From a virus (taxonomy: Duplodnaviria; Heunggongvirae; Uroviricota; Caudoviricetes): a stretch of DNA of 18,936 nt. The stretch's first letter is position 1. Every line of letters begins with the position of its first letter. The position numbers were made by a program, and so were the translations under genes. Below are positions 6,145 to 11,969 of the stretch, one piece after another. The stretch is from positions 1 through 18,936 of the IMG/VR virus record IMGVR_UViG_2529293138_000006. One strand, given 5' to 3'. The notes beneath the pieces were generated by a model. The model had not been told where the DNA came from. It ran no database searches and was given only the letters and a program-made list of their open reading frames with translations.

Positions 6145-6834
6145 TTATCCGTGTTTTCTGTACGTCTGCGGCATGCTCCCAATAACCTTACCGAAGATGA
6201 ACACCCGGTTCATCTCGTCTTTCTCGATCGGGTCCCACGGTGAGTAGCTTTTGTTATCAGAGATGACCAGCAGCTTATCCTTCATCATTTGCAGGCGCTT
6301 TACATGGGCTGTGTCGTCGTACAGAAACGCATAGATACCATCACCGTCGAAAGATTTAACTGTGATATCAACGAACAGCAGATCACCTGGTTCGATCGTT
6401 CCTGACATGCTGTCACCACGCACGTTAATGATGCGGATATTTTCCGCCTTCCTACCATCGAACATATGACGAGCATCGTCAAACGAGTACTCAACCGAGC
6501 GTAGAACTTCTACAAACTCACGGTTGATGACTCCCGGCCCAGCACTGACTTCTATATCAAGAACGTCAATCTTGAAGTATTTGGAATGGCTGACAGTTGA
6601 TTGTATTGGTTGCACTGTACTGTCTGACATATTTCCAACGCCAGAAGATAACCATTCTGCGCGCACACCCAAAGCGTTCGCGATCTCCACGATTTTAGTT
6701 GTTTGATTAGCTTTCCCTGTTTCGATTTTCTGAATAGCAGCTTGGCTAACCCCGACCAAATCCCCAAGCGCCTTTTGTGTAAGGCCTCGCGCTAATCTGG
6801 CTTCTTTAAGTCTTTCTGAGAGTGTTGTTTTCAT
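6145..6834 (-). CDS. Prophage repressor, cI-type (N-terminal XRE-family HTH, C-terminal S24 LexA-like autopeptidase), 229 aa
   Basis: HTH region (LKEARLARGLTQKALGDLVGVSQAAIQKIETGK), an Ala-Gly cleavage site (EVSAGPG), the catalytic Ser motif (GDSMSG) and a downstream Lys (HVKRL). Start chosen at MKTTLSERL (6834) rather than the ORF-track start at 6900. Divergent from the Cro-like gene. Confidence 0.9.
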   Translation of the reverse strand: MKTTLSERLKEARLARGLTQKALGDLVGVSQAAIQKIETGKANQTTKIVEIANALGVRAEWLSSGVGNMSDSTVQPIQSTVSHSKYFKIDVLDIEVSAGPGVINREFVEVLRSVEYSFDDARHMFDGRKAENIRIINVRGDSMSGTIEPGDLLFVDITVKSFDGDGIYAFLYDDTAHVKRLQMMKDKLLVISDNKSYSPWDPIEKDEMNRVFIFGKVIGSMPQTYRKHG

Positions 6835-6875
6835 AGTCCAAATGTACAACCAAGGTTTTATTTCATCAAACGAAA

Positions 6876-6900
6876 ATGGTTGTTGACTAAAAACAACCAT
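6876..6900. promoter_or_regulatory. OR operator: perfect palindrome ATGGTTGTT-N7-AACAACCAT
   Basis: A 9 bp perfect inverted repeat with a 7 bp spacer, lying between the divergent repressor and cro-like genes and overlapping the -35 of the predicted PR. A weaker related site is at 6845-6858 (ACAACCaaGGTTTT). Confidence 0.6.
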
Positions 6901-6911
6901 AGTTTTAATCT
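6883..6911 (+). promoter_or_regulatory. Candidate PR promoter (-35 TTGACT, 17 nt spacer, -10 TAATCT)
   Basis: Hexamers with 17 nt spacing upstream of the Cro-like gene; GGAGG SD at 6927-6931 precedes its ATG at 6939. Confidence 0.5.
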
Positions 6912-6938
6912 TGATTCAAATTAACCACGGAGGTTGTT

Positions 6939-7169
6939 ATGAACCCAGCTATCAAAACAGCGATCAATATCGTTGGTTCACAAAAGAAACTGGGCGCTGC
7001 TTGCGAAGTTTCACAGCAGGCCGTCTATAAGTGGCTTCACAACAAAGCAAAGGTATCCCCTGAACATGTCGGCAGCATTGTTACGGCTACTGGTGGAGTA
7101 GTGAAGGCATACCAGATTCGCCCGGATCTTCCGAAGTTGTTTCCACACACCGAAAAGAACGCAGCTTAA
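6939..7169 (+). CDS. Cro-like / YdaS-family small HTH regulator (76 aa)
   Basis: Small ORF divergent from the repressor with a strong SD. A helix-turn-helix-like segment (QKKLGAACEVSQQAVYKWLHNK) is present. Role inferred from position. Confidence 0.8.
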   Translation: MNPAIKTAINIVGSQKKLGAACEVSQQAVYKWLHNKAKVSPEHVGSIVTATGGVVKAYQIRPDLPKLFPHTEKNAA

Positions 7170-7181
7170 ATTTCCATTTCA

Positions 7182-7194
7182 CGCTCTTTAACAA
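7182..7194 (+). promoter_or_regulatory. boxA-like element (CGCTCTTTAACAA) at the nutR position
   Basis: Matches the NusB/NusE boxA consensus (GCTCTTTAACAA) 12 nt after the Cro-like stop codon. No convincing boxB hairpin follows. Confidence 0.45.
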
Positions 7195-7238
7195 TAAGCA
7201 ATCAACTTAACAGTCAATTCAAACTAAAGGAGTCAATT

Positions 7239-7982
7239 ATGCAACCACTTACATACCAACAGACTAGCGGATTTAGCCCGACTGCGGTGATAAATCGTTC
7301 TCAAACAAAACAGGTGCCAGGCCACGAAAAAATCCGTGATGCCGTCCGCGCTTGGTCGGCTGAAGATAATCAGGATGTCGTTGCCACACTCATTGTGAAT
7401 GAGTATCGGGAGCAGGGCGGCGGCACCATCGATTTCCCTGATGATGTCAGCCGTGCACGCCAGAAGCTGTTCCGCTTCCTCGATAACAAATTCGATTCTG
7501 AAAAATACCGAAATAACGTGCGTGAACTGACCCCGGCAATTCTGGCGGTACTACCGCTGGAATATCGCGGCCACCTGGTTGAGCAGGATAGCTTCATGGC
7601 TCGGCTGGCTGAAATGGAAAAGGAACTCAGTGAGGCAAAGCAGGCGGTCATTCTCAACGCACCACGCCACCAGAAACTGAAGGAGATGAGTGAAGGCATT
7701 GTGTCGATGTTTCGAGTGGACCCGGATCTGGCTGGTCCATTGATGGCGATGGTCACCACCATGCTGGGGGCAATATGGCAGGTTCAAAAATGGCGAAAGT
7801 CGGTCTGCGGGAACAGAACCGACTTTCAGGTGCAAATCGTAACACACTCATTGCGGGAGGAATTATGGCAAACACTGCTGAGATATTCAATTTTCCAGTG
7901 CCGGATGCGGCACAAAAGGAGCCGCGCGTGGCAGATCTCGATGATTATACGCGCATTGCAAATGAGTTGCTGGAAGCTGTAA
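7239..7982 (+). CDS. Hypothetical protein at the cII position (possibly a CII/YdaT-like regulator); C-terminal extent uncertain
   Basis: ORF starting with a good SD (AAAGGAG) after the boxA region. The last ~70 codons overlap the O-like start by 118 nt and have an atypical W/Q/R/C-rich composition, suggesting either a shorter true gene or a frameshift. Confidence 0.45.
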   Translation: MQPLTYQQTSGFSPTAVINRSQTKQVPGHEKIRDAVRAWSAEDNQDVVATLIVNEYREQGGGTIDFPDDVSRARQKLFRFLDNKFDSEKYRNNVRELTPAILAVLPLEYRGHLVEQDSFMARLAEMEKELSEAKQAVILNAPRHQKLKEMSEGIVSMFRVDPDLAGPLMAMVTTMLGAIWQVQKWRKSVCGNRTDFQVQIVTHSLREELWQTLLRYSIFQCRMRHKRSRAWQISMIIRALQMSCWKL

Positions 7983-8791
7983 TGCTGGCCGGATTAACAC
8001 AGCACCAGCTTCTGGTCTTCCTGGCTGTCATGCGCAAAACATATGGCTTTAATAAAAAACTGGATTGGGTGAGCAACGAGCAACTTTCCGAGTTGACCGG
8101 GATATTGCCGCACAAGTGTTCTGCTGCAAAAAGTGTTCTGGTAAAGCGTGGGATTTTTATTCAGAGCGGGCGGAATATCGGCATTAATAATGTGGTCAGT
8201 GAATGGTCAACATTACCCGAATCAGGTAAGAAAAATAAAGTTTACCTGAAAGAGGTAAATTTACCTGAATCAGGTAAGAAAAGTTTACCCAAATCAGGTA
8301 AAGGCACTTACCCGAATCAGGTAAACACAAAAGACAAACTAACAAAAGACAATATAAAACCTTATTCGTCCGAGAATTCTGGCGAATCCTCTGACCTGCC
8401 AGAAAACGACCTTCCTGTGGTGAAAGCGGATGCTGCGATTCAGAGCGGCAGCAAGTGGGGGACAGCAGAAGACCTGACCGCCGCAGAGTGGATGTTTGAC
8501 ATGGTGAAGACCATCGCGCCATCAGCCAGAAAACCGAATTTTGCAGGGTGGGCTAACGATATCCGCCTGATGCGTGAACGTGACGGACGTAACCACCGCG
8601 ACATGTGCGTGCTGTTCCGCTGGGCATGCCAGGACAACTTCTGGTCCGGTAACGTGCTAAGTCCGGCCAAACTCCGCGACAAGTGGACCCAACTCGAAAT
8701 CAACCGTAACAAGCAACAGGCAGGCGTGACAGCTAGCAAACCAAAACTCGACCTGACAAACACAGACTGGATTTACGGGGTGGATCTATGA
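7865..8791 (+). CDS. O: Replication initiator, lambda O-like (308 aa), with an origin embedded in the coding sequence
   Basis: N-terminus MANTAEIFNFPV...ADLDDYTRIANELLEA...RKTYGFNKK resembles lambda O (MTNTAKILNF...). The C-terminal ~100 aa (NFAGWANDIRLMRERDGRNHRDMCVLFRWACQDNFWSGN...WIYGVDL) matches the lambda O P-interaction domain. GGAGG SD precedes the ATG at 7865. Confidence 0.88.
   Translation: MANTAEIFNFPVPDAAQKEPRVADLDDYTRIANELLEAVMLAGLTQHQLLVFLAVMRKTYGFNKKLDWVSNEQLSELTGILPHKCSAAKSVLVKRGIFIQSGRNIGINNVVSEWSTLPESGKKNKVYLKEVNLPESGKKSLPKSGKGTYPNQVNTKDKLTKDNIKPYSSENSGESSDLPENDLPVVKADAAIQSGSKWGTAEDLTAAEWMFDMVKTIAPSARKPNFAGWANDIRLMRERDGRNHRDMCVLFRWACQDNFWSGNVLSPAKLRDKWTQLEINRNKQQAGVTASKPKLDLTNTDWIYGVDL
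8213..8365. repeat. Replication origin: five ~18 bp iterons (TTACCCGAATCAGGTAAG type, each an internal palindrome) followed by an A/T-rich tract
   Basis: Iteron copies at 8213-8230, 8242-8258 (degenerate), 8261-8278, 8285-8302 and 8308-8325, followed by the AT-rich 8326-8365 (cacaaaagacaaactaacaaaagacaatataaaacc). Classic lambdoid ori architecture inside O. Confidence 0.8.
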
Positions 8792-9489
8792 AAAACATCG
8801 CCGCACAGATGATTAACTTTGACCGTGAGCAGATGCGTCGGATCGCCAACAACATGCCGGAACAGTACGACGAAAAGCCTCAGGTACAGCAGGTAGCGCA
8901 GATCATCAATGGTGTGTTCAGCCAGTTACTGGCAACTTTCCCGGCGAGCCTGGCTAACCGTGACCAGAATGAACTGAACGAAATCCGCCGCCAGTGGGTT
9001 CTGGCTTTCCGGGAAAACGGGATCACCACAATGGAACAGGTTAACGCTGGAATGCGCGTAGCCCGTCGGCAGAATCGACCATTTCTGCCATCACCCGGGC
9101 AGTTTGTTGCATGGTGCCGGGAAGAAGCATCCGTTATCGCCGGACTGCCAAACGTCAGCGAGCTGGTTGATATGGTTTACGAGTATTGCCGGAAGCGAGG
9201 CCTGTATCCGGATGCGGAGTCTTATCCGTGGAAATCAAACGCGCACTACTGGCTGGTTACCAACCTGTATCAGAACATGCGGGCCAATGCGCTTACTGAT
9301 GCGGAATTACGCCGTAAGGCCGCAGATGAGCTTGTCCATATGACTGCGAGAATTAACCGTGGTGAGGCGATCCCTGAACCAGTAAAACAACTTCCTGTTA
9401 TGGGCGGTAGACCTCTAAATCGTGCACAGGCTCTGGCGAAGATCGCAGAAATTAAAGCTAAGTTCGGACTGAAAGGAGCAAGTGTATGA
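8788..9489 (+). CDS. P: Lambda P replication protein (DnaB helicase loader), 233 aa
   Basis: Translation is near-identical to lambda P over its full length; ATG overlaps the O stop (ATGA). Confidence 0.95.
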   Translation: MKNIAAQMINFDREQMRRIANNMPEQYDEKPQVQQVAQIINGVFSQLLATFPASLANRDQNELNEIRRQWVLAFRENGITTMEQVNAGMRVARRQNRPFLPSPGQFVAWCREEASVIAGLPNVSELVDMVYEYCRKRGLYPDAESYPWKSNAHYWLVTNLYQNMRANALTDAELRRKAADELVHMTARINRGEAIPEPVKQLPVMGGRPLNRAQALAKIAEIKAKFGLKGASV

Positions 9490-9788: not shown

Positions 9789-9855
9789 TGAAACAGGTGA
9801 GTTGATTTCAAACTGTAGTACAATTCTCTCCAGTTTGAACAGGAAAGAATATGCT

Positions 9856-10188
9856 ATGAACCCTTATATTTATCTTGGTGGTGCAATACTTGCAGAGGTC
9901 ATTGGTACAACCTTAATGAAGTTTTCAGAAGGTTTTACACGGTTATGGCCATCTGTTGGTACAATTATTTGTTATTGTGCATCATTCTGGTTATTAGCTC
10001 AGACGCTGGCTTATATTCCTACAGGGATTGCTTATGCTATCTGGTCAGGAGTCGGTATTGTCCTGATTAGCTTACTGTCATGGGGATTTTTCGGCCAACG
10101 GCTGGACCTGCCAGCCATTATAGGCATGATGTTGATTTGTGCCGGTGTGTTGGTTATTAATTTATTGTCACGAAGCACACCACATTAA
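9856..10188 (+). CDS. emrE: EmrE small multidrug resistance (SMR) efflux transporter, 110 aa
   Basis: Translation from MNPYIYLGGAILAEVIGTTLMKFSEGFTRLWPSVGTIICYCASFWLLAQTLAYIPTGIAYAIWSGVGIVLISLLSWGFFGQRLDL... matches E. coli EmrE. Four TM helices are evident. Same location (after ren) as in the DLP12 prophage. Confidence 0.93.
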   Translation: MNPYIYLGGAILAEVIGTTLMKFSEGFTRLWPSVGTIICYCASFWLLAQTLAYIPTGIAYAIWSGVGIVLISLLSWGFFGQRLDLPAIIGMMLICAGVLVINLLSRSTPH

Positions 10189-10442: not shown

Positions 10443-11969
10443 ATGAAAAAAGCCATAGCATATATGCGATTTTCATCACCAGGTCAGATGTCTGGCGACT
10501 CATTAAACCGACAGAGAAGACTTATTGCTGAATGGTTAAAGGTAAATAGTGATTATTATCTTGATACCATAACATATGAAGATTTAGGATTAAGTGCATT
10601 CAAAGGAAAGCATGCACAATCAGGAGCTTTTTCGGAATTTTTAGATGCTATAGAGCATGGTTATATATTGCCAGGAACTACATTGTTAGTTGAAAGTCTG
10701 GACAGACTTTCAAGAGAAAAAGTCGGTGAAGCGATTGAGCGTCTGAAATTGATTTTGAATCACGGTATTGATGTTATAACTCTTTGCGATAATACAGTCT
10801 ATAATATTGACTCTTTGAATGATCCATATTCATTAATAAAAGCCATACTTATAGCACAAAGGGCAAATGAAGAAAGCGAGATAAAGTCAAGTCGGGTTAA
10901 ATTATCATGGAAGAAAAAACGGCAGGATGCACTGGAGTCAGGCACGATTATGACGGCGTCTTGTCCGAGATGGCTCTCCTTAGATGACAAAAGAACGGCT
11001 TTTGTTCCAGACCCCGACAGGGTGAAAACTATTGAGCTAATTTTTAAACTCAGGATGGAAAGGCGCTCATTGAATGCAATAGCCAAGTATTTAAATGATC
11101 ATGCTGTAAAGAATTTCTCAGGAAAAGAAAGTGCATGGGGACCTTCTGTAATTGAAAAATTATTAGCGAATAAAGCTCTGATAGGTATATGCGTACCTTC
11201 ATATCGTGCAAGAGGTAAAGGAATAAGTGAAATCGCTGGCTATTATCCCAGAGTCATATCAGATGATTTGTTTTACGCTGTGCAGGAAATTCGGTTGGCA
11301 CCTTTTGGTATTAGCAATAGTAGCAAAAATCCTATGTTGATAAATCTACTTCGAACAGTTATGAAGTGCGAGGCTTGTGGTAATACCATGATTGTTCATG
11401 CGGTATCTGGAAGTTTGCATGGCTATTATGTTTGTCCGATGAGAAGACTGCATCGATGTGACAGGCCATCAATAAAGAGAGATTTGGTTGATTATAATAT
11501 CATTAATGAGTTGCTTTTTAATTGTAGTAAAATCCAACCAGTTGAAAACAAGAAAGATGCTAATGAAACTTTAGAGTTGAAAATTATTGAGCTCCAGATG
11601 AAAATTAATAATTTAATTGCTGCATTATCTGTTGCGCCTGAAGTTACCGCTATAGCAGAAAAAATCAGAGTATTAGATAAGGAATTACGAAGGGCTTCTG
11701 TATCATTAAAAACTTTGAAGAGTAAAGCGGTGAGCTCACTTGGTGATTTTCATGCTATTGACTTAACCAGTAAAAATGGGCGAGAGCTATGTCGTACACT
11801 TGCCTATAAAACATTCGAAAAAATCATAATCAATACAGATAATAAAACCTGTGATATCTATTTTATGAATGGCATTGTTTTTAAACACTACCCTTTAATG
11901 AAAACAATATCCGCCCAGCAGGCGATAAGTACTCTCAAATATATGGTTGATGGTGAGGTTTATTTTTGA
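10443..11969 (+). CDS. ybcK: Large serine recombinase (DLP12 YbcK-like), 508 aa
   Basis: N-terminal resolvase-type catalytic region with the serine motif (AIAYMRFSSPGQ), a long recombinase domain and a Cys-rich segment (CEACGN...CPMRRLHRC) consistent with a zinc ribbon. AT-rich codon usage. Confidence 0.85.
   Translation: MKKAIAYMRFSSPGQMSGDSLNRQRRLIAEWLKVNSDYYLDTITYEDLGLSAFKGKHAQSGAFSEFLDAIEHGYILPGTTLLVESLDRLSREKVGEAIERLKLILNHGIDVITLCDNTVYNIDSLNDPYSLIKAILIAQRANEESEIKSSRVKLSWKKKRQDALESGTIMTASCPRWLSLDDKRTAFVPDPDRVKTIELIFKLRMERRSLNAIAKYLNDHAVKNFSGKESAWGPSVIEKLLANKALIGICVPSYRARGKGISEIAGYYPRVISDDLFYAVQEIRLAPFGISNSSKNPMLINLLRTVMKCEACGNTMIVHAVSGSLHGYYVCPMRRLHRCDRPSIKRDLVDYNIINELLFNCSKIQPVENKKDANETLELKIIELQMKINNLIAALSVAPEVTAIAEKIRVLDKELRRASVSLKTLKSKAVSSLGDFHAIDLTSKNGRELCRTLAYKTFEKIIINTDNKTCDIYFMNGIVFKHYPLMKTISAQQAISTLKYMVDGEVYF

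Follow-up and report, generated by a model that had tools for sequence, protein, structure and literature searches.

The locus considered here raises a simple question: why does the gene that follows a Cro-like gene in this prophage run so far into its neighbour, the replication gene O? The sequence belongs to an 18,936-nt stretch of Caudoviricetes DNA (hereafter the window), and the reading frame concerned lies on the plus strand at 7239..7982, where it starts with ATG, comprises 247 codons and closes with TAA at 7980-7982. The overlap with O that had been noticed in a preliminary description of this DNA, 118 nt counted from 7865 to 7982, is borne out by the list of open reading frames. The same description had pointed to a C-terminal tail rich in W, Q, R and C, and this is what the translation gives, with 5 W, 9 R, 8 Q and 3 C in W180-L247 compared with 1 W and 0 C in residues 1-179. 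Two explanations had been put forward, namely that the real gene stops earlier and a point frameshift has carried it on, or that the gene overlaps O in an unusual, genuine manner. In this report we argue that the 247-codon ORF is very probably a stop-loss allele of a prophage ydaT-family gene, produced by a single A>G transition that changed its stop codon from TGA to TGG. The coordinates of the features are collected in Table 1.

Table 1. Features of the ydaT-O region in the window (strand: +, plus; -, minus;., no strand assigned)
Feature	Position	Strand	Basis
CI-like repressor, HTH + S24 peptidase	6145..6900	-	Pfam HTH_3, Peptidase_S24
ydaS (Cro-like)	6939..7169	+	Pfam YdaS_toxin 4e-17, P22_Cro
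ydaT-family gene, cII-position regulator: native coding part, 179 codons	7239..7775	+	Pfam, homology, AF2, polymorphism
Former stop codon: TGA in relatives, TGG (Trp180) here; A>G at 7778	7776..7778	+	Alignments, 61-mers
ydaT-O spacer, 86 nt, non-coding on + in the ancestral arrangement	7779..7864	.	Variable sites by codon position
Read-through tail, 67 codons + TAA: ydaT-O spacer and first 39 O codons in +1 frame	7779..7982	+	
Hairpin then GCCAUUUUUG, candidate terminator of oop-like RNA	7786..7827	-	Inverted repeat, fold
O Shine-Dalgarno GGGAGG	7855..7860	+	Read from sequence; GGAGG at 7856-7860 is 4 nt before ATG
pO-like leftward promoter, TTGAAT-17-CATAAT with TG extension	7862..7890	-	Promoter scan, lambda alignment
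Replication initiator O, 308 aa	7865..8791	+	Lambda O alignment, Pfam Phage_rep_O, WP_032296406.1
Lineage-specific in-frame 3-nt deletion in O: GAT GGT TAT to GAT TAT	7943..7948	+	Alignments
Lambda-type P	8788-9489		Pfam

The gene had been said to occupy the position of cII, and the Pfam assignments agree, the order cI, cro-like gene, ydaT, O and P being that of lambda. The rest of the window encodes an integrase, exo, bet, EmrE and a ybcK-type recombinase, a gene set that we take to be that of the DLP12 prophage family of E. coli K-12. The multidrug efflux gene emrE and the ybcK-type serine recombinase gene (9802-10188 and 10443-11969) stand directly after the P and ren-like genes, which is the DLP12-type cargo arrangement. 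The 931 nt from 7170 to 8100 match 2,416 of 5,426 complete E. coli genomes at 95–99% identity, and all 30 of the matches listed are annotated as a toxin YdaT domain-containing protein followed by a replication protein. On the opposite strand the CI-like repressor probably starts at an internal codon, its ORF running for 251 codons from 6900 and its relatives being annotated at 229 aa. Between this gene and ydaS there is a perfect palindrome with 9-bp arms, ATGGTTGTT-N7-AACAACCAT (6876-6900), which includes TTGACT and is likely an operator/promoter element. The interval between ydaS and ydaT was inspected by eye for an operator of the CP-933P type (TTGATT-N6-AATCAA), and only half-site-like AATCAA/TTGA was seen there.

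By profile, fold and position the gene in the window is a member of the YdaT family. [quoted passage not shown] The structure predicted by AF2 from a 42-sequence alignment reaches pLDDT values of 70–90 for residues 28-177, and its top Foldseek matches are 3c4r and 8bt1 (probability 1.00, TM(target) 0.66–0.69, about 120 aligned columns). The model thus shows the arrangement known from the crystal structures of YdaT, in which a long helix comes after a POU-like HTH domain. With the YdaT proteins of CP-933P and Rac (PF06254; 8bt1, 3c4r) the window protein shares the YdaT_toxin domain and the predicted POU-like HTH and long helix, and the genes also resemble each other in their surroundings, a YdaS/Cro-like gene coming immediately before and a CI-like repressor lying opposite (PMC9986795). 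However, sequence identity to those proteins is only about 26–28%, and unlike the 141-aa YdaT of CP-933P the proteins in the subfamily of the window have 179 aa, being extended by 27 residues at the N-terminus and by two additional helices at the C-terminus. The extension (residues 1-27, 7239-7319) is a low-confidence part of the model, and the extra helices (residues about 143-179, 7680-7775) close with PLMxMVTSMLGxx, a strictly conserved hydrophobic motif that the solved CP-933P YdaT lacks. A further difference from the CP-933P protein is the 68-residue non-homologous tail that the window allele adds. By analogy of position and function, the ydaT-family gene can be regarded as a functional stand-in for lambda cII.

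The native length of this protein is well defined by its relatives. In a comparison of the 247-aa query with 5.8 billion proteins, hundreds of homologues were found at 64–98% identity and with lengths of 178–180 aa, and they span 72% of the query, that is, residues 1-179 only. They come from Escherichia, Citrobacter, Klebsiella, Enterobacter, Leclercia, Kosakonia, Kluyvera and Phytobacter, those at 64–73% identity being contributed by at least six other genera. All along this range the proteins finish at a conserved ...GPLMxMVTSMLG plus two hydrophobic residues, with L168, V172, M175 and G177 invariant. Residues 1-179 of the window protein are 98–99% identical to the 179-aa WP_001182897.1, a 'toxin YdaT domain-containing protein' that is encoded in E. 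coli L73 by a ydaT of 540 nt; this protein belongs to DLP12-like E. coli prophages with the same gene neighbourhood, and its 179 aa stand against 247 aa in the window. In a Citrobacter locus (L005) the DNA past the ydaT stop is unrelated and consists of an 85-nt gap, a 48-codon ORF and a different O/DnaB module. Taken together with the conserved C-terminus, the unrelated DNA beyond the Citrobacter stop therefore marks the end of ydaT as a fixed gene boundary. The window protein does not end with ...PLMxMVTSMLGxx at 178–180 aa as the rest of the subfamily does, and carries 68 extra codons, because TGA has become TGG. Within ydaT itself the polymorphism is coding-like, with 26/16/42 variable sites at the three codon positions and a ratio of synonymous to nonsynonymous changes (syn:nonsyn) of 52:41.

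The lesion can be read directly from the alignments. Over 7170-8100 (931 nt), the pairwise alignment with E. coli L73 shows ATA TGA CAG at the junction where the window has ATA TGG CAG (7773-7778 and the following CAG), and no indel in ydaT or the spacer; the nucleotide alignment with more than 80 relatives is equally free of indels in 7239-7864. The comparison set contains 63 distinct sequences, the window included, from 81 loci, and its IMG/VR loci were chosen by their possession of the same O gene. At the end of ydaT, TGA is found in all 62 of the other distinct sequences (80 IMG/VR loci and L73). A 61-mer centred on 7778 has 375 exact matches in the 5,426 complete E. coli genomes when it carries A and none when it carries G, a count that a G accompanied by another nearby SNP would escape. 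The long ORF is thus due to the A>G substitution at 7778 within the stop codon. Two parts of the preliminary description fit this result well: the real gene does end earlier, its native end being 7778 after 179 aa in the alignments with relatives, and the tail is an out-of-frame reading of the 5' region of O without homology. With a lesion of this kind the gene keeps its coding capacity for the YdaT domain, for the oligomerisation helix that is predicted, and for the entire native C-terminus.

The substitution is also found outside the window. The exact 247-aa sequence is GenBank EGX08268.1, a hypothetical protein of E. coli STEC_MHI813, and it is encoded on 7 contigs. Over 7170-8100 the window is matched at 100% identity by AFDZ01000011.1 and by contigs from the runs ERR10434963 and SRR17020611. 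Since the same allele occurs in an NCBI assembly and in independently assembled runs, the TGG allele is genuine and belongs to a small clonal group.

Loss of this stop codon has occurred in other copies of the gene too. The preliminary description had proposed homologues of the full 247 aa with a conserved C-terminus as the observation that would refute its reading; such a search found only a cluster of seven sporadic stop-loss variants, which do not refute it. In this cluster of 247/248 aa the six members besides the window protein are all 248 aa long, and their codon 180 is W (TGG; four proteins, five loci), L (TTA) or G (GGA). The TTA and GGA alleles also destroy the ATG at the position of 7775. 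Compared over 812 nt, locus L093 equals its TGA partner L029 except for the stop codon itself, L089 and L090 differ from their nearest TGA haplotypes at 2 and 3 sites, respectively, and the window has 6 differences from L73 and at least 9 from any other stop-loss allele. Each of these alleles is closer to some TGA haplotype than to one another, and thus they are independent and sporadic. The loci L087-L093 hold at least five further independent losses of the ydaT stop, each on a different haplotype and each rare. Any one stop-loss allele is present on 1–7 contigs, as against at least 1,000 contigs for single common 179-aa sequences, and these contig counts give no sign of enrichment or spread of the stop-loss alleles. 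Two of the variants come from low-coverage metagenome contigs (1.5x and 4.4x) and may be errors. Other lesions of ydaT are comparably rare, an example being a nonsense mutation at codon 55 in one of the IMG/VR relatives (among L006-L085).

The frame of O that the tail enters contains 17 stops in 336 codons, and 67 open codons in succession would be met there with a probability of about 0.03. A tail this long is thus mildly unusual at most, which explains why it caught the eye. Of the 63 distinct relatives, 55 have this frame open for 68 codons, and 6 have a C>T change at 7785 that creates a TAA two codons past the normal stop. For the read-through frame the spacer gives a syn:nonsyn of 2:13, and the stretch shared with O one of 4:4. 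The AF2 model gives pLDDT values of 32–44 to the tail (residues 178-247), and among 5.8 billion proteins no homologue of the tail was found outside the seven-member stop-loss cluster. Judged from these patterns, the tail consists of 68 unselected residues without coding-type conservation. The purifying selection and the maintained open frame that would characterise programmed read-through or a conserved overlapping gene are thus not what the downstream frame exhibits.

The extent of the overlap depends on where O begins. Its start at 7865 had been considered well supported, and we reach the same view: Met1 of lambda O (MTNTAKILNF) aligns to MANTAEIFNF at this position, with 67% identity over the whole protein in BLASTP, and a Shine-Dalgarno (SD) sequence is present. 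Lambda has caGGAGtcattATG at the corresponding place, in the same SD-ATG layout. The exact 308-aa protein is WP_032296406.1, and it matches Phage_rep_O in Pfam at 2.1e-30 and also TIGR01610. A longer O has been annotated by PGAP in L73, where a 339-aa protein begins at the ATG equivalent to 7775 and overlaps the ydaT stop as ATGA, and public records carry both 338/339-aa and 308/309-aa forms. This long isoform was considered and rejected: the lambda Met1 corresponds to 7865 and the spacer is without coding signal, which at only 15 variable sites is supportive but not conclusive evidence. In the frame of the long O these 15 sites in 7779-7864 are distributed as 3/7/5 over the codon positions, with syn:nonsyn of 5:10, and there is no third-position excess in any frame of this interval; the O gene proper has 11/23/74 and 77:40. 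These comparisons suggest that the true start lies 30 codons further downstream than the widespread 339-aa annotation has it. If the long O were true, the same base change would turn its codon 2 from Thr to Ala and would also abolish a junction for termination-reinitiation. On the ratios of 52:41 and 77:40, respectively, both ydaT and O are under purifying selection.

Another derived change is found within O itself. The 3-nt deletion is confined to the window and the identical contigs L002-L004 among 89 loci, and it removes the Gly of DLDDGY in the N-terminal DNA-binding domain, a residue kept by lambda O as Gly28. That two derived lesions lie within 170 nt of each other is in keeping with a relaxed constraint on this copy of the prophage.

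The spacer between ydaT and O holds a candidate oop-like antisense RNA of about 70 nt, which would extend from about 7854 to 7786. The pO-like promoter, of sigma-70-like sequence, is the sole promoter-like match of the promoter scan in 6800-8200, and, exactly like that of lambda pO, its -10 element overlaps the start codon of O. A perfect 10-bp stem is formed by pairing of 7818-7827 with 7795-7804; the 84-nt fold of the minus strand has -25.2 kcal/mol (z = -4.2), and a T/C polymorphism at 7800 preserves pairing on the minus strand only. The U-run is broken in most relatives, with G at 7787 in 42 of the 63 distinct sequences, and Rfam gave no match in the whole window. Lambda oop is transcribed from pO up to the tO hairpin and shares 52 nt with cII (PMC5869508). 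The two loci are alike in gene order (cI, cro, cII-position gene, O, P), in the homologous Met from which O begins, in the leftward CATAAT at the O start and in the minus-strand hairpin with its U-run. They differ in the spacer, which is 86 nt here and 32 nt in lambda, and in the protein at the cII position, which is unrelated in sequence to lambda CII. Whereas lambda oop reaches into cII, the candidate RNA would end about 8 nt past the ancestral ydaT stop, and, unlike in lambda, in the window allele it falls wholly within the extended ORF. When the plus-strand mRNA was folded around the ribosome-binding site of O, the result was not significant (z = -1.5) except for the spacer hairpin. Because the plus-strand fold is not significant at the binding site itself, there is no sign that read-through would unmask a sequestered SD.

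Several other readings have to be weighed against stop loss. A point frameshift around 7750-7800 would place the true C-terminus in another frame, and both the abrupt shift of composition near residue 180 and the ORF that opens in another frame at 7775 could be taken in its favour. The alignments do not bear this out: between 7239 and the O gene there is neither an insertion nor a deletion, the window protein is collinear with the 179-aa homologues through their final residue, Ile179, and the ORF from 7775 is an upstream extension of O, not a continuation of ydaT. The frameshift suggested in the preliminary description is thus replaced by a substitution in the stop codon, and its probability is virtually nil. 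A sequencing or assembly error, by which the G at 7778 would be missing from the actual genome, might be suspected given that the source assembly is an older draft (AFDZ01) and that two other stop-loss variants were taken from the thinly covered metagenome contigs; yet the allele recurs together with the linked 3-nt O deletion in the NCBI assembly, in ERR10434963 and in SRR17020611, on seven contigs in all, so the chance of an error is negligible. The unusual genuine overlap with O that had been offered as the other explanation also fails, since the overlap is not conserved and a length of 247–248 aa is reached by the seven-member stop-loss cluster only. A wider version of this idea would make the extension functional, either as a selected longer isoform with a genuine overlap or as programmed read-through of a leaky TGA-C that has become fixed. 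TGA followed by C is a weak termination context in E. coli, and the ancestral stop is of this kind; the open downstream frame of most distinct relatives and the repeated origin of TGA>TGG likewise speak for it. Nevertheless we consider a functional extension exceedingly improbable in view of the excess of nonsynonymous changes in the spacer and the even ratio in the overlap, the early TAA in six distinct relatives, the unrelated sequence past the stop of distant homologues such as that of Citrobacter, the lack of homologues and low pLDDT of the tail, and the handful of contigs with stop-loss alleles compared with those of the common 179-aa forms.

The recurrence of the lesion could instead indicate adaptive domestication, in which recurrent stop loss would be selected because the replication or induction of the prophage is crippled, either by ribosomes that overrun the start of O or by the disabling of a CII analogue. 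In favour of this, the same codon has been lost as a stop in at least six independent events, and the window lineage has in addition lost the conserved Gly in the DNA-binding domain of O. Such events are, however, extremely rare relative to the sequenced copies and have not spread, their rate is comparable with that of other sporadic lesions such as the nonsense at codon 55, and ydaT and O remain under purifying selection, all of which makes domestication highly improbable. By analogy with lambda CII, whose C-terminal 16 residues are described as an FtsH degradation signal in work cited in PMC5869508, the conserved C-terminus might act only when free, for example as a degron; stop loss would then mask the degron, and ribosomes would cross the oop-like target and the O start. 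This is very unlikely in our view, and if true it would mean a stabilised lysogeny regulator and less O synthesis, helping to lock the prophage in place. We conclude that the long ORF is an ordinary, rare decay mutation, neither a frameshift nor a designed overlap.

On this stop-loss reading the consequences for the two genes can be sketched. In the ancestral state ydaT stops after 179 codons at TGA 7776-7778, followed by an 86-nt untranslated spacer and by O from 7865. In the TGG lineage, which comprises E. coli STEC_MHI813 and a few related isolates, ribosomes should run through the spacer, the ribosome-binding site and start codon of O and 39 of its codons in the +1 frame, until TAA at 7980-7982. 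The POU-like DNA-binding domain, the long helix and the native C-terminus remain encoded, with 68 residues appended. For CP-933P it has been described that YdaT forms a tetramer via its long C-terminal helix and that oligomerisation is needed for DNA binding; it binds an inverted repeat at the ydaS-ydaT junction, raises the activity of a pRE-like promoter when overexpressed, and is disordered in its last 17 residues (PMC9986795). Because of this disordered end of CP-933P YdaT, an appended tail might be tolerated. In an expressed product, PLMxMVTSMLGxx-COOH, the C-terminal end that is hydrophobic and strictly conserved, would be buried by the tail, which would probably alter stability or oligomerisation and assembly rather than abolish DNA recognition. 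Ribosomes crossing the start of O may also change its translation. The host would hardly see the mutation, because an intact CI-like repressor would keep the rightward genes silent, and we infer that the stop loss is neutral-to-mildly-harmful decay tolerated because of this silencing. Such near-invisibility to the host fits the rarity of the allele and its failure to spread.

Mutations in which a lost stop codon lets a reading frame continue into the next gene are well known, and the protein described here had already been deposited. What the present analysis contributes to annotation is that the 247-aa EGX08268.1 is best understood as a YdaT-family regulator of 179 aa that has lost its stop, and not as a new protein. 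With the TGG allele, nature at the same time supplies a variant on which the role of the conserved C-terminus in this analogue of CII could be tested. For the prophage family, it represents one more case of sporadic decay in a widespread and largely silent prophage of E. coli.
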